A DNA stretch of 64,000 nucleotides from Podarcis liolepis (Eukaryota): NCBI GenBank assembly GCA_965112155.1, contig OZ218099.1. One strand, written 5' to 3'. A program made the translations under genes and the position numbers. The notes beneath the pieces were generated by a model that had not been told where the DNA came from, made no database searches, and worked only from the letters and a program-made list of their open reading frames with translations. Numbering within the stretch: the stretch's first letter is position 1; each line of letters begins with the position of its first letter. Positions 39 through 64,000 of the stretch are shown in pieces.

Positions 39-278
<240 letters not shown>

Positions 279-3200
279 TGAGTGGCTTCAACCATGGGGA
301 GGTGGCCTTGCAAGATGCAGCTGTGTAAGAAGAGTTGCTTTTGTAACGTGTGCTCTGAATGGCTGGAGAGCCTGGCAGACCTGCACATGTGTATGAAAGA
401 ACCTCCCGGGACTGGAGGGTGAAGAAACCTTCCTAGCCAATTGGAAAAGACAGGTTGGTTGGTTTTTCAAAACGAGGACAATTGTCTCAGTCCCCAGTGA
501 CTAATAAATAAAGCACATTGGGGGGAATGGGGGAATAATGGAGGCAGCTGTTTGTAATGAAACTGTTGCCAGTGTGATTTGTAGGGAAAGGAGCAGAGCA
601 AAATCTCTAGCCAAAGGAGCTTGCAATCTTAATTAATTTTGTTAAAAGTGCAAGCATGTCATATTGGGTAAGATGAAGTAAGGTTTTGCAGTTCATAGAT
701 TTTACCAAGAAGGTTCTGGTTCACTTTTCCAGGCATGTTTGTCTTGTTAACAAATTATTTTCCCCACCTCACAAAATGTTTTCCTACTGAAAATGAGTTA
801 AACAAGAAGAAAGAGTGGAATTCACTGGAGGTAGCTCAATTCTGTGAAAGACCTGTCTGTTGCCACCATATTGATATACCAAGCAAAAACATGACATTTT
901 TCTACCCCAGCTGACAAAGAGGGGGGGAAATTGACAGAGGAACATGCTGTGAAAATGGGGGTGAAGCCTTAGTTCTTCCCACCAGGCTGTTTGCAGCACA
1001 AGAAGCAGTTTCCTTGAGCTCATAGGCCCCCATGGAAAATGTGTAAGAAATGAATGGGACACTGTTAAGTAGGTTTGCTCAAAGAATCTCCTTCCTCCTT
1101 TTTTGCTGGACGCCGCACTTCACTTTAAAAAACAGAAGTTCTAGCAGCATTTTAATTTCCCCAGACCTGTTGTTCTTCACAGCATGTCTAGATTTCAGGA
1201 TTTGGGGTGGTAGTGTGGAGTTGTCAATTTGTTTATAAGTTTCCTGGGGACCTGAGGAGTGAGTGTAGTGACTTCATCTTTCTGGGCCAGTTGTGATGTG
1301 GATGGATGGACGATGTCTTAGCTTAAGAAAGATGAAAAGGAAGCTTACAGGTATGATGCATTGAATTGAGCATCCTCGGCAGCTGCAAGGAAGGGTCCAG
1401 CACTGCTTGAAGCAGTGAACCCCACGGCCACCTTGAGAAGATGAGGGGAAATCCTTGTCACTGGTGTCTCCAGATGTCTGCCTCCTTTGCACTCCAAATG
1501 TATCTGTGGTTTTGGGTAGGAAAGTGCCCTTGTAAGCATCTTAACATCATCCCTTGGCAGAGATTGTGGCCAAAGGATAGGGGAGGCCTTTGATCTTCAC
1601 CTCCCAGAGGCAGTATGTTGCCATTTGCTCCTGACCAGATGCCTGACACAGCATTGCTCCACTTTTGTTGGTTTCTTGAGGATGCAACGATGTTCTTCAA
1701 TTATCCCAGCTGCGCCACAGCTTTTAATTCAAACTATATTAATGCTTCAGATTTCTGATTGAGAAAGGCAAAGGACATTGCATTCAGAATTATTTCTACT
1801 TATTCATACTACTGTGTGACAAATACATAGACAGAAACTTTTGACTGCCATCATGCACAGTGGTCCCCTTTCTCTTCTGTGCCTCTGTATCAAAGTGAGA
1901 GCAATTTGGTCAAATTTCTAATAAATATAATAAAAAATATTTTTAAAGGTACATACTCCAGAAATTTCCCCCCTCCACTGCTCACCTGCTCCACAGAGCC
2001 CACCTCAGAGAAGCGCCCATCCCAGGTGTGCTGTTCAATTTCTGTCTGCAACAACAGAGCAAAGCCCAACAGAGTTTTTTGGGATTGCATAGAGCCCTCC
2101 ATAGCAAGCAGCTGCTTCACTACCAGCTGTTACTGCCAAGAACTGCATCAACAAATATCCCTCCCCTCAGTTTATATCCATGTTGCCTCCATGTTCCCAA
2201 GGGTATATGCATCAAGCATAGATGATTATATCTGGGGGGAGTGGGGGGACAATATCTGGTTGATGGGCTGGATCCTGAGCTCCCCTATTCCCCTCAGGCC
2301 ATTTTGACAGGTGGGTAAGGATGTCAGCCTGTTAGTTACCTGACATCACCATGACATCAGCTGAATGTACGTCAGAGGAAAGACCCAGGCGTGCAGTCTA
2401 AGTGTGCTGCTGATTCTTTCCTTTCTCCCTTCTCGGCCTAGCTTGATCTGAAGCAAAGCAGCAAAGGAAGATTCCTGCCAAAAGCAATGATTGGCTGCAA
2501 TGCAGAGTAGTGCAACAGATCCCTGGAGGACTTGCTGTTGCCTCTGATAAGTGCTGACAGCAAGCCTTACTTGCCAAGGAAGTATTCAAAAGCACACTTT
2601 ACGGTTCCTGATTGTTCCTTTGCAGCCACGTCAGGTGTGTGGGAGGTGGCTATGGTTTGAGGGAAATAGCCTTGCGGGCCACATTAGGACTTCTGATTGG
2701 CCTAACTTGATTCCCCTCAACTGATGAAAAATTTCATTTTTTATTGTGTTCTCCTTCCATGGACTCAGGACAGCATGAATGGTTCTTCCTTCCTCTACCT
2801 TTTTAAACTTCAAAACAGTCCTGTGAAACACTAATCCACCCACACATTAATATTGTCAGTGGAGAGACTTCTGACTTGCCCACCTCTGAGAGCTCTTGTG
2901 TTGGCAGGCTCAAGGGAAAGGGCCTTTTTGTGGTAGCTGGCAGGTGTCCATTGGCCCTCATGGTTACAGGTGTTTAAAGAAAGCCTTAAAGACCTATTTG
3001 TTTTCACTGGCTTTTGCTTGTGTTGTTTGCTATAGCTGTTTCATAGTATTCCTGATGGTTCTGGATTGCACTTGGTATTGGATTTAGCTGGAGAGGTGTT
3101 TTTTTCATTCCTGCTGATTTTTAATATTGTGATTGCATTGTATTTTAACTTGCATGTTCCAGTGAGTAGACCTTAAAAGGTGCTGTACAAATCCTTTTTT

Positions 3201-3717
3201 AAAATGAAGTGATTATATGGCAGAGAAAGAGGGAGAGAGCTGGCCAGGGCTGAGTAACTGAAGCCTGGTCTTTCTGGTCCTAATCTAGAAGTCTATCCAT
3301 TACACCACACTAGTTCTCACTAAGGTATCATTGTGGATTCTCTATTATGCTGTTATGGTGGCATTGGCAATGGCAATGGCAATGGCTTGTCTGTGGACAG
3401 CCTTGTGTATCATTCCCAGCTGTCTGCTGTTGACTGAATATTCACTCTATATCTGTCTTTGATGCTTACAAGGTCTGGGCATTCCTCTGATCCCTCCAAA
3501 TACCCATTTTACATGCTCCTAACACTTCCTAATTTGCCACAAACTCAACTGATTACCATGAACTTCTCAACTAACCAACCTATTGTGGTTGAAGTTACAC
3601 AAAGGTTTTCTGTACTCCAGTAGCGGTCTGCTTTCAGTTTATTGATGGGTGGATTGAATTTCCTCCATAAGGAGCCCTGTTGTCACAGTGTGACTGTGCA
3701 ATAGGAAATCCAAAGGA

Positions 3718-3832
3718 GCATGAGACTCTTAATCTCGAGCCCCATGTTGGGCAAAAGATTCCTGCATTGCAGGGGGTTGGACTAGATGACCCTTGTGGTC
3801 TCTTCCAGCTCTACAATTCTGAGATTCTATGA
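3718..3832 (+). mobile_element. tRNA(Lys)-derived SINE remnant with CR1-type 3' tail
   Basis: gcatgagactcttaatctc..gagccccatgttgggc head, then ggactagatgaccctt...ttccagctctacaattctgagattctatga tail. Confidence 0.7.
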
Positions 3833-3987
3833 GTCATTTGGCACAGGAGTAGAAAACTGTTTAATTTGCTTCGCATAGTATACTGTACTCAGTTGTTTCA
3901 GTTTAATATTTTGCTTTGTTACAACAAATCACTTGTTCTCCTTCTGGATGTCCCTAGATTTGTCTTCAGAAAAGGTTTTCCTTCTGA

Positions 3988-4227
<240 letters not shown>

Positions 4228-4536
4228 TAAGGCTGGTCTGCTCTGTATACCCACCAACCTCTTCTGAGGCCTCTCTGCCCTGCAAACTAGACTTGCTTAT
4301 TTATTTTGGAGCTCAGATTTTTTTGGGGGGGTGGGGGAGTTAAAAGCTGACTGGCGGTGGAGTACATGAAAGGGATAACTGTGGCTGGAGTACGGATAAA
4401 CCTCCACACTCCAGCCCACTCCTTTTCCTCCATTGAAGCCCCTTAACCCCCTGTGTTAGTGCTCCAAGGTGGGAACACTGTGCTTCTCTTGTGATGTGCA
4501 GCTTTGTCCTGTCAGGATCCAGCAGGCTATTATATA

Positions 4537-4830
4537 CAATGGTGCCTCGCAAGACGGAAAACTCGCTAGACGAAAGAGTTTTCCGTTTTGGAGGTGCTTC
4601 GCAAAACGAATCTCCTATGGAGAAAATGTCTTGTGAGTTCCTGCGGGTTTTTTTTTCTCCCCCCCTTTTTCTAAGCCGCTTATCAGCTGATCCAATAAGC
4701 TGATAAGCTGCTAATAGCGCTAATAGCGCTAATCCTCTAATCCGTCAATGGGCTTGCTTCGCAAGACAAAAAATCTGCTAGACAAAGAGAATCACAGAAC
4801 GGATTCTTTTCGTCTTGCGAGGCACCACTG
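4537..4830. mobile_element. Tc1/mariner-superfamily MITE, family A
   Basis: TIRs caatggtgcctcgcaagacg / cgtcttgcgaggcaccactg, with TA on both sides. Confidence 0.88.
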
Positions 4831-4954
4831 TACTCATGTTTCCACCTTTCTCCCCCGTTCCTCCCCCCTTCCCCCGTGCAACTGTCCAAACTGCTCAAGG
4901 TAAACAAACAAACAGGCCAACTCTAACCTTCATTCCCCCCTCCCAACCAGGAAA

Positions 4955-4955
<1 letters not shown>

Positions 4956-5006
<51 letters not shown>
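4956..5006. repeat. (TAA)n microsatellite
   Basis: Directly visible. Confidence 0.95.
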
Positions 5007-5010
<4 letters not shown>

Positions 5011-6066
5011 TAAAAGGTAAGCATCACAACAGTGTTAGCAAATATATAGCAGGTAAATACAAAAGAGGAGACTAAATCACACAGTGGGAAAGCATATAAT
5101 TAATTAAATAAATAAACAAATAAAGTAACAAAAGAAAAGAGAGAAAATCCCGCTTGCCCTTTGCCATTCAATCACCAGCTTAAACTACAGGAACATGCAG
5201 AAGTACAGCAGAGGAAAACACTCTCTTAGCATGTCACTTGACTGTTTTCAGTTATCCCTATGTTGGGTAGTCTCCAATGGTATCCTAATTTGCAATCCCA
5301 GGAGTGGGGGGGGGGGGGCATGTTTGCCATGAAGTCACTTCAGCCAGCCTCTTAAGTTTTAAGGAGTGGTTAAAAGCCCATCTGCCGTAATTGGTATAAA
5401 CTCCATAAAGTACTTTTCTGTGAACACATTCTCTGCAATCCTTTATTAAAGCAATAAAATATATAACACTAATAAAAATATATGTAATAGGATCACATGG
5501 ATTTTATTGCCCGGCTGAACGACAATGAGACCTGGGGGAGTGGGGGGGGGGAATAGTGGCTTGTGTAAAGCAATAAAAGCCTTTGTACAAGAGTTTGCCA
5601 AACTACTCTGGGCAAGGAGGTTCTTCCAAGAGCTGGTGAGTGGCCCCACAGTTTCTTACGTTCATAAGTGGATAGAAAGTGGGGAGAGAGAGGGAGTTAT
5701 CGTGGGAAGGGGCAAAGGTTGCAACACAAAGAGGTGGATCTAACAGACTGCATTAATGAAGAATTAGATAGGGTGCAAGGCATTTGGAAAGCAGGTTGAG
5801 GCTCAAGTTACTGCAGCTCAGTAGAACAGGCACAAACACCCATATCAGTTGTCTTGTCTGTCTCAAGCCATGAAGTAGTTGTTTGCACACTAAGGAAATT
5901 GACAAAGCATTATTTCTGAGTGACAGCAGATTAGTGCTGGGCAGCTGGACTAAATGCTGCCTGTCAGCGAAAACTGAACAATGATGTAGTTGTGGTCGTT
6001 CCTTCATACACAAGAGCCACGTGTGGCAACCTGCCTGGTGCAGAAGATACATACATGTTTCATGAG

Positions 6067-6457
6067 TAAAAATAAAAAAATTCCTTCCAGTAGCACCTTA
6101 AAGACCAACTAAGTTAGTTCTTGGTATGAGCTTTCGTGTGCATGCACACTTCTTCAGATACACTGAAACAGAAGTTGCCAGATCCTTCTATATAGTGAGA
6201 AGGTGGGGAGGGGTATTACTCAGAAGGGTGGTGGGAATGGGAGATAGGCAGATAGCTGAGAGAGCCTCTTGACGACTCTTAACGACTGTAATAGGTCTTA
6301 CAGGAAAAGGCAAGGGGTGGGAAGGTGAGAAATGGTTTAGTTATGTATAGTGAGATATCCAATGTCTTTGTTCAGCCCAGGTCTTTTCATGGTTTTAAGT
6401 TTGGTAATGAGTTGTAATTCAGCAGCTTCTCTTTCCAGTCTATTTCTGAAATTCCTT
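6067..6457 (-). mobile_element. 5'-truncated Penelope-like retroelement (ORF C-terminus plus pLTR)
   Basis: Minus-strand peptide RNFRNRLEREAAELQLITKLKTMKRPGLNKDIGYL resembles the end of a PLE GIY-YIG domain. 11-bp flanking duplication tgtttcatgag (6056-6066, 6458-6468). Terminal segment shared with the copies at 54453 and 57726. Confidence 0.85.
6124..6161 (-). ncRNA. Minimal type I hammerhead ribozyme motif in the Penelope pLTR
   Basis: GUAU-CUGAAGA-A-GUGUG(CAUG)CACAC-GAAA-GC-UC-AUAC: core boxes, stem I GUAU/AUAC, stem II and palindromic AGCU stem III. Confidence 0.8.
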
Positions 6458-6656
6458 TGTTTCATGAGCAGAGACTTAGGGTTGCTGTGGATATTCTCTA
6501 CATTTCCATTGCAGAGTTCCTGCCAAGATGGGATGTTGTGCTGGTGTTCTGCCCTCCATCCCAGCTCCCTCTTCTGCAACCTGCTTTCAGCAGTAGTTGG
6601 AAGGCCATCTCTCATGGATGCTTGAGATTCCTGCATTGCAGGGGATTGGCCTAGAT

Positions 6657-8145
6657 CAGTGTTTCCCAACCTTTTTTGGGCAAAGGCACACTTGTTTCAT
6701 GAAAAAAATCTCGAGGCACACCACCATGCCAGATGGGGAAAGGTCACTTTTTACTTATGTAAAAAAAAAATAAAAAAATAGTAACAGCATAGAAGGTAAT
6801 GGTTATCTCTTTGATGTCTGATGGGAGGGCATTCCACAGGGCAGGCGCCACTACCGAGAAGGCCCTCTGCCTGGTTCCCTGTAACCTCACTTTTCACAGT
6901 GAGGGAATTGCCAGAAGGCCCTTGGCACTGGATCTCAGTGTCTGGGCTGAACGATGGTGGCGGAGACGCTACTTCAGGTATACTGGACCGAAACCGCTTA
7001 GGGCTTTAAAGGTCAGCACCAACACTTTGAATTGTGCTCGGAAAGGTACTGGGAGCCAATGTAGGTCTTTCAAGACTGTCGTTACGTGGTCTCGGCGGCA
7101 GGTAGCAGCGCTCACAGCTTACGGACTGCACCGTGTAACAGGTGTCTGGCCCAGCAGCCTAAGGCGGACAAGCCACTGAAACAGGCATTCAGAATCCATT
7201 CATTTCATAAAACCTGCAGGGCTCAATCTCTGTGTTTGTGTATGTGTGTGTTTCTGTTTTGCCCAAGGGTCTGGGGGTGGGAGAGAGCTCTTTAGCATGA
7301 TGCTTTTAAAACAATTAAATTATCAACAAACAAACCTGATGATACGAATAGCAACGTCAGGTGCTACCGGGGGGGGGGAGAAGGGGGCCTACTCGGAAGT
7401 AAATACTGCGTCCAGGCGTAATTAGCGCTGATTTAAGGTGCACCAAGACTGCCAAAAACCTCACCAAAGATATGCAACAAAGCGCTTCGTTGCAGAGGAG
7501 AGAGTTTGTGCACTGTGGAGGCTGGAGGGCTTCTATTCTACATGCGGGGGTTGGGGGGGCGAGGAAAATGTGCTCCGTGGGGGGGCGGGGAAGGCAAGAA
7601 AAGGAGCAGAGCTCTAACTATAGGCTCCCACGCTTGAGCAGGCCCGACTCGGTGGGGCGGACCACCCTCTCTCCTGGAGGAGGAGGAGGAAGAGGAGGAG
7701 GAGATTCCCATCCACGGCGTGGCCTCCCGCGCTCCTGAACGGGAAATCTCTGCAGCCCAAGACTCTCCGCGAGGCAGCTCCTCCCTTCCTGCCTTGAGCC
7801 GCCGCCAGCCGCGCCCCCCTCCCCAGTTATCTGCTGCCTGCCAAGCCCTGCCCCTCTTCATTGTCCTCCCCTTCTGTTTATTCCCCTTCCTCCATCCCTC
7901 ACTTTTTTCCTCTCTTTCCTTTTTTTAAAAAAATATTTTCTCTTCCCCTTCTTTTTTTCCACCCTTTCTTTTTTCTCTTTCTCCCCCCCCCTCCCCGCCC
8001 TCCTGGGTTAAAGGATTTGAGCAATGGGTCTGGAGGTGGAGCTCGTCGGAGGATTAGCCCGACTCGCCCGCCTCCCTCCCACGGCACACTAGGCAACGTC
8101 CGGCGGCACACTAGTGTGCCGCGGAACACCGGTTGGGAAACACTG
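6657..8145. mobile_element. Non-autonomous hAT element (1489 bp) inserted in a CR1-type tail
   Basis: Perfect 15-bp TIR cagtgtttcccaacc / ggttgggaaacactg and 8-bp TSD gcctagat (6649-6656, 8146-8153). The flanks rejoin to a CR1-type tail ending attctatgattcta near 8198. Confidence 0.92.
6793..7099 (-). mobile_element. L2 LINE ORF2 C-terminal fragment inside the hAT element
   Basis: Minus strand reads VLKDLHWLPVPFRAQFKVLVLTFKAL...RAFSVVAPALWNALP; the 3' tail is missing. Confidence 0.85.
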
Positions 8146-11043
8146 GCCTAGATGACCCTCAGGGGGTCCCTTCCAACTCTGCAATTCTATGATTCTAAGG
8201 CTTCAAAGCTATGGAGCACATTTGCTGAGACAGCAAAAGGTGCTTCATAACAGATCTGCTCAAGGAGGAGACTGGCAGACCCTTTGCCTTTCCAGTTGTC
8301 TGCCAACAGGACAGCTGTGTGTATATGAAATGACACACAGTCTCGTTATTGCTTTTTTTTTCTTTGCATATTAAACTGTAAGCAACTTTTTATTTTACAA
8401 TACCTTGATTTAAATTTGAAAAGTTGCTGTGGCTTCAGGCCCAGACCTCCCTGTTGTAAGCCAAGAATCCCTGCAGCAGGTCTTTCCTGTATGAGTAGGC
8501 ATGAGTATCTACTTCTAGGCAATAAGGATGGTCCCCATACTAGGAAATAGCTAACACTAGCAGTGCCTTAGCAGCCTGCACAGATGCAGGGCTTCTTAGC
8601 AAGATCCTAGCCATCTGCCTTAGACCAAAATCCACCACAAAGCTGAAACCAGAGGTGACCCCCCTCCTCCAGTTGTTCCTAGAGACATTTTCATAGCAAC
8701 TGCCTGCCCCGGGGCTGGTCTCCAGCTCCCAACATTCCCTTTCATTAGTATTACAAATAAGCAAGGCCTTAAAAGCAGAAATCAATAACAAGGCAAGCGC
8801 TACGTGTTTGGAAAGCGTGATCTTAATGAGCTGAATGCAGGGTGAGTTGCCATTCCTTGTCTTTCCCGGTTAACCACTGCCTGGCATCTGCTGGATGTGC
8901 ATCCATAGCCCGCTCTAAAAGCACTGCTTGTGTGTTCACAGCTCCCAGGAACTTCTTTTATTATTTGTAATGGGATTAATAAATAGCAGCTGTTCCCTTT
9001 GTTTGTTTTCATTCATTAAACACAATTACATGCAGCCCGATTGCACCCTCTTTGATGTGAAATGGGAGAGAATAATTTTTCCTGTTGTTCAGTGCTATAA
9101 TATGCTGTCATTGGCACTGAATGAAAATCATAATTAATTTTCATTTGGGTTTTTGCATCTTCCTAATCACGGTGGTCCCAGCTCCTTAAAACAGGTGACA
9201 GACATGCATCTCCCGCTCTCTTCTTATGCTCCCTGTAGTTTTCCTCTTTACTGTGCTGCTCCCAGAAGGGCAACACAATAACAGAAGATCAAACAAATAC
9301 AAAGCAGGTTGTAAATCTTTCAGAATGTAGTGAGTCTTTCTTGAATCAAGAGAGAAAGGGATTCACGAACCATGAATAGAACTCCTGTTCCTAGTCACTC
9401 AATAGCTCCAGTACCCTTAATAATTTCATCTTTTTTATTTCTGCCAGATTAACGTGTCATTTGCATTCAGAGCTTGGCCACCTAGAAATCACTGTGATTG
9501 GCGTTTTCTGTGCTTTGGATGGAGTATTGGGGTTCTTCCATATGTGCCATTGCAGGTCTTGGTTATCCCCATGCAGAATTGCAGCAGGCTCAGTTTTTGT
9601 ACTGAGGAGGTGCTAGAATCACATTTCCCATGGGAAGCTAACAGTAGTTATCCTCCCCTAGGGAATGAAGTTGAGCTGCTTTACCCTCTTTTCCAACTCT
9701 TAGGATTCTTCATGCATTCGCTAACTATGTGGCAAATCACCTTTATAGAATCTGCACTGAGCTTTTAAGTGTTTCATCATCCGCAAGGTCCTGAGCTGCA
9801 GCGCTGTGTACTCTCCACAGCACGTTCTGCACGTTTAGCGCTGGAGACCTGTAGGGCGCCACAGCTGCTCTTAATCAAAAGGAGCTGATTTCCATATTAA
9901 GGAATTACCTGTAGGGCTTGTGATGGACCTTTCCTGCCTCCTAATAGTCAGTCTATTAATTATACAAGAGTTTATTTCCAATTATGCAGCCAATGAAATG
10001 GTTAATCAAGTCCCCTTTGATGGATGCTTTGACATTTAATTGGAAAGAGAAATCCACCTTGCACTCACAACAAACTTAGCCACTATAATGGGATTTCTGA
10101 TGGGTTTGCATTTTAATCATCTGTTCTTTATCTGGCAGCGCAATTTAAAGGGTGTGGGACTTGGTGAAATGGACTCCTGATGATGGGCACCTCTCTGTCC
10201 TTTTTGTAGAAAAATCCCACCATTCCCTCACTATCTCAGCCCTTTTCACTAGCTGCTTTCCTGCCAAATCCCATCCTCCCCCCCCCAGAATCCAAAGCCC
10301 TGTTCACAACATCCCTGATTATCTCTCAGTTCATATAGTCTGTGTGCCTGAAGATGCAGAGTTTTTCAAGATTTCCTGGATTACATCCAAATACTGATCT
10401 AGTGATTCTCATCTGATTGTGAGAACAGAACTAGAAAGTGGACTAGGTTTAATTATTACATAATTAAAGATGCCGATTTCATAAATGTCCCCAGTGTTTC
10501 CTTGTCCTCAGGACCATCAGAAAAGTCCCAGATCATGCCATTGCGGGAGAGTTCTCCTATTCTCTGAATTAAGAAGGGCTGAGCAACCTGTGGCCCCCCA
10601 GATATTACTGGACTACCAGGTTTCTGCAGGGGAAGTATTGGGCCACATGTCAATATCCCTTGCTCTGGTTGCCGGATGTCATGTGTGTGAGGAGTCCTAG
10701 CAGATCTGCAAAAGCATTTTTTGCAGAACTGCTGCTAGCCAGACTCCATACATGCTTCCTGCAAAATACAGGAAGGAAGATAGATGGGCAATTAAGCATT
10801 GCCTTCAATGTGTCCTCTGACTCTTTTGTCTCTTTCTCACATACTCACATGGGAACAGGAGGAAAAGGACAGCCACTTCAGCTCACTAGCCAAGCTAGAC
10901 AGCTGTAACCCTGTTGCAGGGTGATTGGGGATAGTGTGTGGCAGGCTGCAATCCTGGCAGGATGGCGATTGCTCCTCCTTGCTCAGCTGCTAGAATGGGA
11001 CAACACACTTGCTGATGCACTGTTGAGTTGCTGCCATTTTTAG

Positions 11044-11337
<294 letters not shown>

Positions 11338-55830: not shown

Positions 55831-55968
55831 TCACTCCACAGAAATGGCTTTCCGTGGAGCAGGAATCTGGCCCACCAGTTGTAGCACCCGCTGGGAAAGG
55901 CAGAGGCTGGTAGGATGGTGGGAGATATATTGACACAGAGCATATGGACAGATAGAGATAGACAGCAC
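55831..55968 (-). CDS. Clathrin terminal-domain-like gene, coding exon 8 with stop codon
   Basis: tttgctgctcccccag| VLSISICPYALCQYISHHPTSLCLSQRVLQLVGQIPAPRKAISVE then TGA. Compare CLTC [29 protein letters not shown]. Confidence 0.82.
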   Translation of the reverse strand: MLSISICPYALCQYISHHPTSLCLSQRVLQLVGQIPAPRKAISVE

Positions 55969-56268: not shown

Positions 56269-57072
56269 CTAAAAGGATAGAAAAGCAGTTGCTTGAGAAG
56301 TCTGAATCAGTCCCCTTCCCACATCACATCAATACTATTTAACCATACTCTGACTGGGATTACCAGCATGGCTCTTGAGTGCATAATGGCACTCTCAGAT
56401 CACCCATCCAGGGGGCCCTGACCTCCCTTAATAAAAAAATATTTTGTTTGTTAGTTTAGGGCATCCCTGTCTGCTTCTTTTGTCTATTTTGTTTCTGCTC
56501 TTGGTGTCTGTCTGTGGGGGGGACGGACAACCCATGTTTTGCCTGTTTTTTCAGGCAGTGAGGGAGTTCTAAGCACAGGCAGTTTTCCTTGTGTGAAATT
56601 GATATCTTGTGATGGCCACAGAAGTTTTAGATTTAGAAACGAGTCCCCAGGCCCGAAGAGGTTAGGCACCCTTTGCCAAAAACAGGCATGCGGAACCTTT
56701 GGCCCTCTAGCTGTTGATGAACTACAACTCCCATGGCTATGTTTTCTGGGGCTGATGGGAGCTGTAGTTCAGCAACATCTGGAGTTCCAGAGGTTCCCCA
56801 ACAATGCCCTAAAAGCTTCTTCCCCTTGTCCCAACTACTCCCGGGCACTTGGAAAACATGACCGCCAACTCTGGATCAAATAGCCAGACATCCACTGAGT
56901 TAGATGGGGAAGGCACAAAAAAACCCCACCACCAACTACATCAGCCCAACTGACACCTTCCAGATGTTTTGGATTACAATTCCCATCAGACCCAGTCAGC
57001 ATGGGGATGAGAGAAGTTGTTGTCCAAGGTTCAGCAGGTCCATAAGCCAACTGTCTCCAAGGCAAAACTCAC

Positions 57073-57186
57073 CTGTACTGCACTGGGGAAGTCCCCTAAC
57101 TGAGTCCCCTTGAAAGGCAAGGTGTCGCGGGCACTAAGCAAGGCGGCGTTCCCTGGCTGATGTGGGCCTAGCTCTACCACATGAAA
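57073..57186 (-). CDS. Clathrin terminal-domain-like gene, coding exon 6 (114 nt)
   Basis: tttgtgtctgcag| FHVVELGPHQPGNAALLSARDTLPFKGTQLGDFPSAVQ |gtgagt. Same 38-codon length as CLTC [38 protein letters not shown]. Confidence 0.92.
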
Positions 57187-57298: not shown

Positions 57299-57463
57299 CT
57301 GTCCAGCCTGTTCCTTGCCTCTCCGCACAGCAGCTAAGAGGGATGTTGAAGGTTTTGGATTCCTGGAAAATCTGTGCTGAGGCAAGGCTACTGCTTGGGC
57401 TTCTATGACCTGAGACAGTGGGCCCCCTCGCCAATACAGCTGGGTCAGGCCCACAACTTGGCT
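57299..57463 (-). CDS. Clathrin terminal-domain-like gene, coding exon 5 (165 nt)
   Basis: tttccttctcacag| SQVVGLTQLYWRGGPLSQVIEAQAVALPQHRFSRNPKPSTSLLAAVRRGKEQAGQ |gtgact. Compare CLTC [54 protein letters not shown]. Confidence 0.9.
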
Positions 57464-58349: not shown

Positions 58350-58468
58350 CTGCTCAAGTCCTAGAGCAGAGAGAGCCATCCACATATGACTGGCATCCCG
58401 TTGATATCCTACCACCTCCATGCCACAGAGACGTTCATGTCGGCTAAACTGCCAACTTGGTCCGGAAC
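58350..58468 (-). CDS. Clathrin terminal-domain-like gene, coding exon 4 (119 nt)
   Basis: tctcccttcaag| (R)SGPSWQFSRHERLCGMEVVGYQRDASHMWMALSALGLEQ |gtacat. Compare CLTC [38 protein letters not shown]. Confidence 0.9.
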
Positions 58469-58598
58469 CTTGAAGGGAGATTACAGACAAGGAATGGAGT
58501 CAAGGTCTTCTGCTCAATTCATATGGCTTACTAGATAGATTAAGTAGGGAACTTCTGGCCAAGGGGTTCAATTGGACATGCCAGGCCCGTTCCGTAAC

Positions 58599-58734
58599 CA
58601 GTGGTGGCCAAACTTGGCCCTCCAGCTGTTTTGGGACTATAATTCCCTTCATCACTGACCGTTGGTCCTGTTAGCTAGGAAAGATGGGAGTTGTAGTCCA
58701 AAAACAGCTGGAGGGCCAAGTTTGGCCACCACTG
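58599..58734. mobile_element. Fold-back MITE (hAT-like)
   Basis: 34-bp perfect TIR cagtggtggccaaacttggccctccagctgtttt. No clean TSD. Degenerate relatives at about 23120, 46740, 56683, 56900 and 57490. Confidence 0.8.
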
Positions 58735-59364
58735 CACCTAAACCACACTCACCCACCCATCAGTGATTATGTCAGCTGATGGGCGGGAGGACAGGGTTTA
58801 ATCCTGCACTGGCTATGCCGTCCTGTTCCTAGGTGGCAACAGGATCACACAGCTGAGGAAGCAGGATTTAATCTAATGAGCTAATGTGCCAAGATTAAAG
58901 TGCTCTGTCTTCTCCTTTAAGGGGGCTGGGCTGCATATGGCGCCACTGCTGCCCCCGCCCACTTAAAGGAGAAGCTGAGCAAAGTGTCAATTGAAACAGC
59001 TTCCCCGGGGGAGAGAGTCTGCTTCAAAGGGCACTTTGCTGCTTTAGGACAATCCTCCATGGATAGATCCTCAAACTACCCCTCTGCTTTTAATTTTCAT
59101 CACAGTAGACTGTTGAGGCAACGCCAGCATACTGCTTCCGCAATAATTCCCTTCAATAATCACTAACTTATCCCATAAACTAGACAGCCTGCCTCTCCTA
59201 CAATGCATGTGTCCTTTGTCCTTTACTCCCAACTCCATCCACCAAGCACCCTTGGTTTCACCACTTAACTCCATTCATCATTCTGCCTACAACCTGCCCC
59301 TGCCCAGGATTCTTTCATTATAGCCACCCTAACAACATCTTCCCCAAGTCCCTTGAACACTCAC

Positions 59365-59514
59365 GTTTTACGGTCCAGTGGAAGACATCCTCCTCTGTCA
59401 CCACAGCCAGAATGTCAGCGTTCAACCACACCCAGTACTCAATAGGATGAGCAAATTCCCACTGGTATCTTAAGGAACGCTGGTCCACGTCGTAGACCTG
59501 GGCCAGCTGCCCCG
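59365..59514 (-). CDS. Clathrin terminal-domain-like gene, coding exon 3 (150 nt)
   Basis: cctcttccttctag| (A)GQLAQVYDVDQRSLRYQWEFAHPIEYWVWLNADILAVVTEEDVFHWTVK |gtgagt. Ungapped match to CLTC [50 protein letters not shown]. Confidence 0.92.
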
Positions 59515-60472: not shown

Positions 60473-60704
60473 CTCTGACAGCAAGCAGTGGACGGCTAGG
60501 ATTAGCCAGAGCCCCTTGCACATGATGCAAAGTCCAGTTTGGCGGAGCCTGATCCTCATTGGGAGATGCACGGGGATCCAAGAGCGTCAGCGATTGCCGG
60601 GAGGAGTCCCCAGGAGGGCTGTGCCGGACACAGAGGCGAGAGGCAGACGAGAAGGTTACACGAGGGTAGGTGATGTATTCCGATACAATGCCATGGGCTT
60701 GGAG
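60473..60704 (-). CDS. Clathrin terminal-domain-like gene, coding exon 2 (232 nt)
   Basis: cccattctctgcag| LQAHGIVSEYITYPRVTFSSASRLCVRH...VQGALANPSRPLLAVR +1 nt |gtacag. Compare CLTC [28 protein letters not shown]...ADSAIMNPASKVIALK (also phase 1). Confidence 0.88.
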
Positions 60705-62549: not shown

Positions 62550-63520
62550 AATGGCTTCCACCGGAACCCCGCAAATCTTCTATCCACACAACCACCTCGC
62601 CCCTTTCACACTCTCTGGGGCTGCATAGCGCCGCAACCACCCCTGAGCTCGACCCATTCCAAATCGCGCACCCGCCCCGGCCCGTCACCACCTCTCGAGT
62701 AACTATTTTCCCACAGAGGCCTATAGGTTGAGCTACGTGGGTTTTTTTTGGGGGGGGGTGTTTCCTGCTTACCTGAGTCAAAACTTCCACGCGGACTGGA
62801 GACACAGGCTCGCTCATAGCTTGGTATTCCGAATCAACCTGCAGTGCAGAGAAAAATAGGAGCAAATGGTGCGCGGGAGAGAAAAGGGGGACACGTGGGG
62901 AGAGGGGCGGCTTTGGGGAAGGTTTATGGAGTCGGGAGTGACGACCCAGGCTAGCAAGTAAATTATAACAGGAGTTAACAGTAAGAGGCTCACCCCGAGG
63001 AAAAACTGTAACTAAATCCATGAAAACAACTGCACCACATAGTTCAATATTTGAGCTTTTAAAAACTTACAGGGAAGCGCTCCGCGTAGCTGGCAGTCTT
63101 CCCCACCGCGGCTGCCCAAAGTTCCTACTCTTTCCTCCTCCTTTTTCCTCGGATTATAATGGCGTTTCAAGGCCATTCCTGCCCTCTTTCCCAGGTGTAC
63201 ATGATCTTGCTTTCAGACTCGATCCAATTAGCCCTAGCAAAAGGGAGGATCCCTCAGCCACATCTCTCTCTACTACTCCTACCGGTTCGACCAATCCCAG
63301 ACCAAGGGCCCCATGGAGAGCAGCCTGATGCGGACCCAGGAAAAAGGGGGAGGAAAGCAACCAACTCGCCCCACCCGGAGCAAGCGGACAGGAAGCCGTT
63401 GTGTATGAAAACCAACAGCCTAACGATCTGCTACGCGCAGAACACAGACCGTGGAGTTTGCACACCCGCTTTGGTATTTTGCACGAGAAAGCGGCATATA
63501 AATGCTTTTATAAATACAGT
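62550..63520 (-). promoter_or_regulatory. CpG-rich region, likely promoter and 5' end of the clathrin-like gene
   Basis: Visibly higher CpG density than the rest of the window and not an obvious repeat. Contains coding exon 1, an upstream CCT|gtaagt donor (63071/63070) and a minus-strand TATAAAAG at 63505-63512. Confidence 0.5.
62773..62817 (-). CDS. Clathrin heavy chain terminal-domain-like gene, coding exon 1 (whole exon 62773-62838)
   Basis: Acceptor tttttctctgcactgcag| at 62838; ATG at 62817 (G at -3); MSEPVSPVRVEVLTQ then |gtaagc. Compare CLTC MAQILPIRFQEHLQ|. Confidence 0.85.
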
Positions 63521-64000
63521 GCAATATATAACTCTTGGATGTTAAGCTTTAGAGGCATATCAGAAGGAGCTGTGGCTAGCAGAAGATCTGGGTTGCAGAC
63601 CAGAATCGGAATCAGGTTCGTTGCTTGGTTGTCTTCAGCCCAAGCTCCTGATAGTGCAGAGAACTGAAAATCCACACTGGCTCCTCCTAAGTTTATTTCG
63701 AAGCAAGTCCAATTAATTTCAGCGGTGCTCATTTCTCAAGGCCTTGTCCTCAAGAAAAGGTAGTAAATGTGACTCTGGGTGGTGCTGATACAGACGTGGA
63801 ATCACCCTACAAAAATTCTTTTTCCTGCCGAACCAACCCTGCACATCGCGAATGGGATGTCAGAGAGCAAAAACTTCTCGCCTTGGTGCGCCTGTTTTCT
63901 ATGGGGTTTGAGGGGGGAGGCGGGGAAGGGAAAGGACCTTTGCTTATGCTCAGAGTAGCATGCAATCAACGTGAGCCCCCGCTTTCAATTTGAACTCGAG

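Follow-up and report, generated by a model that had tools for sequence, protein, structure and literature searches.

A terminal-domain-only clathrin gene of Podarcis liolepis and the likely ancestral origin of its additional intron

Introduction

The 64,000-nt stretch of Podarcis liolepis DNA analysed here (GenBank assembly GCA_965112155.1, contig OZ218099.1; hereafter the window) contains a clathrin-like gene whose introns resemble those of CLTC, with one additional intron that splits what would be a 269-nt exon. This structure raises the question of whether the intron was gained recently, in a vertebrate duplicate of CLTC or CLTCL1, or is a remnant of an older clathrin gene structure, and thereby also what kind of gene carries it. 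An earlier note on this DNA had left both outcomes standing. The results described below favor the second of them and point to a family of clathrin genes that consist of the terminal domain only.

Gene structure and the additional intron

The gene lies on the minus strand and is convergent with a plexin-A gene. Its features, listed in transcriptional order and followed by those of the neighbor, are:

63601..63732, minus strand: optional upstream exon, used in P. lilfordi isoform X2 for a 51-aa extension; joins the acceptor 21 nt before the ATG
62773..62817, minus strand: coding exon 1, 45 nt from the conserved ATG; AG acceptor 21 nt upstream of the ATG
60473..60704, minus strand: coding exon 2, 232 nt, ending in phase 1; corresponds to CLTC exon 2 plus eight codons
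59365..59514, minus strand: coding exon 3, 150 nt, symmetric (phase 1-1); corresponds to CLTC c.251-400
58469..59364, minus strand: intron 3 (the additional intron), 896 nt, phase 1, GT-AG; within the codon of Arg143, equivalent to CLTC Gly134
58350..58468, minus strand: coding exon 4, 119 nt; corresponds to CLTC c.401-519, with two compensating one-codon indels
57299..57463, minus strand: coding exon 5, 165 nt; encodes the invariant Gln200 (CLTC Q192, arrestin-box pocket)
57073..57186, minus strand: coding exon 6, 114 nt; skipped in models P0012 and P0022
56092..56268, minus strand: coding exon 7, 177 nt
55831..55968, minus strand: terminal coding exon 8, 138 nt including the TGA; last strand and two linker-like helices, with no leg exons beyond
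39..11334, plus strand: 3' exons of the plexin-A gene

Splice assembly of the window yielded eight coding exons of 45/232/150/119/165/114/177/138 nt with intron phases 0,1,1,0,0,0,0, which reproduces exactly the phases and the first seven exon sizes given in the earlier note. All seven introns have GT-AG borders and pyrimidine tracts, and the spliced ORF remains open for 379 codons up to the TGA in exon 8. Its product is identical at 374 of 379 residues to a Podarcis lilfordi protein annotated as "clathrin heavy chain 2-like", and the start position in exon 1 is also used in other lizards, turtles, and lungfish. Exon 5 is skipped in P. lilfordi isoform X3. The optional upstream exon was not seen in other lizards and matches P. 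lilfordi at 45 of 51 residues, against 374 of 379 in the core; as it diverges faster than the coding core, it is probably 5' UTR. At the acceptor of exon 5 (57463), turtle models differ by one residue, a Lys at the exon start that the lizards lack, and this suggests that a tandem-acceptor shift may explain part of the one-codon offset observed at intron 4 (see below).

Intron 3 must be spliced, since its 896 nt are not a multiple of three and contain 22 stops if read through. In a search of PDB chains, exon 3 aligned without gaps to Ala84-Gly134 of CLTC, equivalent to 150 nt (c.251-400), which leaves 119 nt (c.401-519) as the CLTC remainder after the intron 3 site. The coding exons of human CLTC, which we take to be 42/208/269/162/114/174 nt long, thus have a 269-nt exon at this place. 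It had been stated that 150 and 119 add up to this exon exactly; the sum and the homology of the 150 nt are exact, but the 119 nt of exon 4 are the net outcome of one codon lost just after intron 3 and one gained near the exon end. Similarly, of the six introns described as shared, five (introns 1, 2, 5, 6, and 7) coincide with the assumed CLTC boundaries in the pairwise alignment, whereas intron 4 is one codon off. The lizard gene hence departs from the assumed CLTC/CLTCL1 layout by one additional intron, while six positions match within one codon. Indirect support for the assumed layout comes from the placement of CLTCL1 c.988 in exon 7 (PMC4511860), and not in exon 8 as expected with seven upstream introns. 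The coding exons of CLTC and CLTCL1 are equal in size (PMC13676984, section 18), and the available portions of PMC7029067, PMC3123225, and PMC3669371 contain no printed CLTC exon boundaries.

The seven introns at clathrin positions support the earlier proposal that the gene arose by DNA-level duplication and not by retroposition, and, together with the open ORF and the conserved orthologues, they set it apart from retrocopies and pseudogenes.

Intron 3 also contains MITE-like inverted repeats at 58599-58734 (52-nt arms, 92% complementary) and 58909-58974 (22-nt arms), and part of the former recurs near 56699-56734. These repeats are later insertions and are unrelated to the origin of the intron. 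As for the neighboring gene, the first plexin exon tested is identical over 71 residues to a Plexin-A1 PDB chain, with Plexin-A3 scoring almost as high. This plexin-A gene provides a synteny anchor for tracing losses of the clathrin-like gene.

A clathrin propeller without a leg

The identity of the gene was established by the PDB search; Pfam searches with six single reading frames around the gene matched no clathrin family. The Pfam family Clathrin_propel was matched in 18 of 30 family members, the lizard row not being among them. For the orthologue P0003, which is equally long and 82% identical, an AlphaFold2 model (pLDDT 90.7, pTM 0.90) resembles the clathrin terminal domain with a TM score of 0.87 and an rmsd of 2.2 Å at 25-26% identity, which indicates that the protein would fold into the N-terminal seven-bladed clathrin propeller.

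The linker, ankle, and leg repeats (CHCR) are lacking, with the stop at codon 380. The trimerisation domain and the light-chain site are likewise absent from the 379-aa ORF, and the orthologues end at about the same place. None of the 30 family members matched the linker or leg families of Pfam. Six canonical clathrin queries matched only terminal-domain exons and no leg exons in the window, and Pfam gave no match for any of the 125 long reading frames in the 44 kb towards the plexin gene (11.4 to 55.8 kb). The lizard gene is, judging by the predicted fold, a stand-alone clathrin terminal domain and not a triskelion-forming clathrin; with no leg, light-chain site, or trimerisation domain, its product can form neither triskelion nor coat.

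Distribution and age of the family

Named orthologues were found in lizards, turtles, two caecilians, and lungfish (35 matches) and, on the protostome side, in horseshoe crab, spiders, mites, a millipede, a centipede, two bivalves, and a nemertean (26 matches), and further family members are present among the best 150 of 733 matches. Most full orthologues across Bilateria measure 363-404 aa. Snakes, crocodilians, birds, mammals, frogs, insects, and nematodes gave no named match, which argues weakly for loss. Eight canonical-type proteins of ~350 aa fell outside the family and were regarded as fragments.

Some of the database entries are peculiar. The Mauremys mutica model P0015 has an N-terminal fusion to an EF-hand (CaBP-like) segment, which is unmatched in the window and probably represents a mis-joined upstream neighbor gene. 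The Platysternon orthologue P0023 carries the wrong database name "elongation factor Tu", and the family member P0042 has a 690-residue low-complexity C-terminal extension, either real or due to a mis-joined model.

In an IQ-TREE tree (LG+G4, no mixture model; groups picked after a first tree), 18 family rows were split from 21 canonical rows, the latter being representatives of 50% clusters, with a support of 100/100. The trees contain no vertebrate CLTC row, and nine canonical matches, possibly human, were left out of alignments, trees, and counts. Forcing six vertebrate-type members together with six animal-like canonical clathrins was rejected (AU test, p = 4e-50), whereas forcing the whole family together with the animal-like canonical clathrins was not (p = 0.115); thus, the tree cannot date the duplication. 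Against five named protostome members the lizard protein reaches 202-214 bits, and against the CLTC domain 157 bits, the latter obtained with a near-identical query, and in the tree, which has no named CLTC row, it groups with the protostome orthologues and not as a member of a CLTC/CLTCL1 clade. Taken together, the presence of orthologues in protostomes and deuterostomes, the 100/100 split, and the bit scores argue that the duplication is older than the protostome-deuterostome split. An origin in the animal stem would also be allowed by these data.

The intron 3 site in other species

Outside the window, introns were inferred from breaks in protein models (exon skips and frame breaks) and not from genomic DNA. 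Since exon 3 has phase 1-1, it can be skipped in frame, and an automatic indel scan covering 175 of 197 proteins yielded 37 events, among them deletions spanning exactly site 2 to site 3 in Platysternon (P0023), in Chrysemys isoform X3 (P0024), and in isoform X4 of the spider Stegodyphus (P0194). In addition, the scan listed 14-residue insertions at site 3 in two sea-turtle models. It missed two further cases: in Argiope P0197 the same skip was read by eye, and in the canonical model P0163 (1373 aa) site 2 is followed directly by the codon equivalent to Gly134. P0163 was taken as a plant protein because its N-terminus matches the Arabidopsis and soybean CHC N-termini given in PMC3742294. In the plant-type P0165, the preceding exon lies in a shifted frame, in which 21 of 24 codons are compatible against 1-5 at five control offsets, and the sequence returns to frame exactly at the intron 3 site. 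In the family member P0096, the 52-residue segment of exon 3 is repeated exactly and in tandem, and the intron 3 junction is also where two reptile-like genomic ORFs stop. The exon 3 unit is thus skipped whole in turtle, spider, and plant models and duplicated whole in P0096.

The site falls in a surface loop of the propeller, and the register around it shifts by 1-2 codons. The junction lies four codons after a conserved Trp in plant, lizard, and turtle, and four codons before a conserved Pro in plant, spider, and P0096; both distances are compatible with a single phase-1 intron in a loop prone to indels. Three canonical proteins and one mite-like member have insertions of 8-10 residues close to site 3, but these were not taken as signs of an intron, since the loop varies naturally.

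Intron 3 would thus most likely be ancestral and have been lost in the ancestor of CLTC and CLTCL1, instead of being a recent gain. The very old duplication that the earlier note had envisaged, with loss of the intron from CLTC/CLTCL1, agrees with the signs of the intron in models of spider orthologues and of land-plant canonical clathrin and with the occurrence of the family in protostomes and deuterostomes, whereas the rare vertebrate gain offered as its alternative is not supported. The suggested comparison with invertebrate clathrins could be misleading: all three animal-like canonical genomic frames examined run through the site, so that invertebrate canonical clathrins may lack the intron despite its age.

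We regard it as highly probable that the clathrin gene of ancestral eukaryotes already had the phase-1 intron in the Gly134 codon, and that this intron was kept by the domain-only gene and lost from CLTC/CLTCL1. Before the protostome-deuterostome split, the 5' part of a clathrin heavy chain gene would have been duplicated as DNA, and this part, comprising the terminal-domain propeller and two linker helices, would have become a separate 8-exon gene that retained the intron. The lizard gene would be a member of the resulting terminal-domain-only family. Meanwhile, the full-length clathrin gene would have lost the Gly134 intron several times, once before the separation of CLTC and CLTCL1. Several losses are needed as six canonical frames selected by eye, three animal-like and three fungal/protist-like, span the site and read through it.

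These read-through frames, and the fact that no animal canonical clathrin with the intron was seen among the frames examined, are also what could be expected if plants and the domain-only gene had gained the intron independently at a proto-splice site and CLTC had never possessed it, in which case the family would still be old. The AG|G context of the intron 3 site is indeed proto-splice-like, and parallel gain is possible in such contexts. Yet parallel gain accounts for only a small minority of the introns shared by plants and animals, codon and phase are identical in plants and the family, and several of the six read-through frames also lack intron 2 or 4, so that they are apparently loss-prone genes; independent gain is therefore unlikely. 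Still far less credible is the sense conveyed by the label "clathrin heavy chain 2-like", namely that CLTC/CLTCL1 was duplicated in vertebrates or reptiles alone and that the duplicate recently gained an intron. The automatic database names and the six intron positions in common with CLTC (assumed on the CLTC side) would fit such a duplicate, but the protostome orthologues outscore CLTC, the AU test rejects a grouping of the vertebrate members with animal-like canonical clathrins, and the intron is inferred in spider orthologues, leaving this reading with hardly any probability. Nearly as remote is a truncated or decaying clathrin copy, or a gene with leg exons located elsewhere and missed. 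It could be argued from the many broken or alternatively spliced database models and from the vertebrate and insect groups without named orthologues. It conflicts with the intact ORF ending in exon 8, the narrow length range of most full orthologues across Bilateria, and the 44 kb without leg exons up to the convergent plexin gene. In addition, eight of the 26 matches of the protostome search are contained in full on contigs of 1.3-3.5 kb, as expected of spliced mRNAs.

Adaptor-binding sites, C-terminal tails, and possible function

The arrestin and other adaptor-site residues of the CLTC terminal domain were taken from PMC5182127. In all 30 members compared, the equivalents of W164 and Q192 are invariant, and the four arrestin-pocket residues W164, Q192, I194, and H229 are kept in 27-30 of 30. 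Q89, F91, and K96 are kept or conservatively changed in most members, while K98 is replaced and Q152 is a Glu in 22 of 30. The lizard protein also has Trp in place of S185 and Gly in place of R188, both of which border the arrestin pocket. The arrestin-site columns have a conservation of 0.77 versus a background of 0.54 (p = 0.0008, for one of five sets tested and with no burial correction), whereas the clathrin-box, W-box, and Royle sites are at background (p = 0.23-0.49), part of the clathrin-box residue list and F27 being our own assumption. Judged by these columns, the arrestin-box pocket is the best-conserved site of the family. Further conserved motifs in blades 1 and 5 are family-specific.

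Class I PDZ ligands have the C-terminal motif S/T-x-V/L/I. An S/T-x-V/L tail is present in 14 of 38 members (lungfish, both caecilians, two further members, and nine mite or mite-like proteins), and three additional mite-like members also end in a PDZ-type tail, which the P. liolepis protein lacks and which none of nine lizard and turtle proteins has. The mite and mite-like proteins P0049, P0056, P0067, P0075, P0085, P0097, P0101, P0106, P0112, P0130, P0138, and P0193 all end in T-R-L, preceded by a variable, often acidic linker, with the rest highly diverged. This makes the T-R-L terminus a strong candidate for a PDZ-binding motif.

When overexpressed, the clathrin terminal domain alone suppresses coated-pit initiation, and a longer fragment (TDD) binds AP2 and SNX9 without entering coats (PMC7480105). 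With a probability that we place just short of even, the protein would serve as a decoy or scaffold that binds adaptors but does not polymerise, acting on a subset of clathrin ligands. It is predicted to be soluble and to receive short leucine-rich adaptor motifs, mainly in the arrestin-box pocket between blades 4 and 5, and may compete with clathrin for some of its ligands or redirect them locally; in lungfish, caecilians, and mites, the S/T-x-V/L tail may tether the protein to PDZ scaffolds. Alternatively, the propeller may have been neofunctionalised into a generic WD40-like scaffold whose partners are unrelated to clathrin adaptors, as could be read from the low (25-26%) identity to the CLTC domain, the three of four adaptor sites that do not exceed background, and the family-specific motifs in blades 1 and 5. 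We consider this somewhat less likely than the decoy or scaffold, given the near-complete retention of the arrestin-pocket residues and the kept or conservatively changed Q89/F91/K96 in most members. The conserved pocket, combined with the effect of the free terminal domain (PMC7480105), favors the decoy or scaffold over a protein with unrelated partners.

Comparison with known clathrins and significance

The protein most closely resembles the terminal domain of CHC17 (CLTC) as used in crystal constructs of ~363 residues (PDB 2xzg, 5m5r, and 1utc), with which it shares the seven-bladed propeller and the first linker helices; the boundaries of the laboratory construct are almost equal to those of the natural lizard protein. 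Six intron positions (assumed for CLTC) and the core residues of the arrestin pocket are common to both. In contrast to CLTC, the lizard gene ends after this domain, without leg, light-chain site, or trimerisation domain, and keeps intron 3, and the family has altered W-box and Royle residues and, in some lineages, a PDZ-type tail. CHC22 (CLTCL1) is likewise a clathrin heavy chain paralogue that is patchily retained among vertebrates. However, CHC22 is a full-length protein with 85% identity to CHC17 that originated some 450-494 Mya (PMC6548504), whereas the terminal-domain-only family would be older, predating the protostome-deuterostome split. The engineered dominant-negative TD and TDD fragments (PMC7480105) resemble the lizard protein in being free terminal domains outside coats, and their competition for AP2 and SNX9 provides a model for its action; they are overexpressed wild-type CLTC, while the lizard protein is the product of a diverged natural gene known here from its sequence. 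Land-plant CHC1 and CHC2 resemble the lizard gene in having phase-1 introns that correspond to its sites 2 and 3, as judged from P0163 and P0165, but they are full-length canonical clathrins with further introns, having 29-30 exons (PMC3742294).

In the clathrin literature compared here, non-vertebrates and lamprey are credited with one heavy chain gene and jawed vertebrates with two. In its available part, the clathrin survey of PMC6548504 reports only CLTC and CLTCL1 and accepted orthologues only with 50% coverage, a threshold that a 379-aa protein is unlikely to reach. The literature searched, whose coverage leaves out most subscription journals, yielded no paper on a clathrin paralogue limited to the terminal domain, and the accessible portion of bioRxiv 10.64898/2026.08.20.745084 does not mention such a gene. 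The head-only clathrin paralogue is annotated in databases but apparently undescribed. The label "clathrin heavy chain 2-like" is misleading and may contaminate presence/absence surveys of CHC22 as well as the choice of RNAi targets in chelicerates.

An ancestral intron lost in one lineage is ordinary by itself, and the interest of this case lies in the gene that the intron flags. As a character independent of protein divergence, intron 3 indicates that the paralogue keeps the older structure and that CLTC/CLTCL1 are derived. We tentatively propose, while rating the whole scenario at somewhat less than an even chance, that Bilateria ancestrally had an extra head-only clathrin gene, maintained for over 550 million years as a natural competitor or scaffold that does not polymerise and is PDZ-tethered in several lineages, which would have escaped description because mammals, flies, and worms lost it, and whose intron would be older than the CLTC structure. 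A conserved head-only paralogue across Bilateria would alter the clathrin gene inventory and provide a natural counterpart of the dominant-negative terminal-domain fragment, and the uneven conservation of its four adaptor sites may offer a handle on what each of these sites does.
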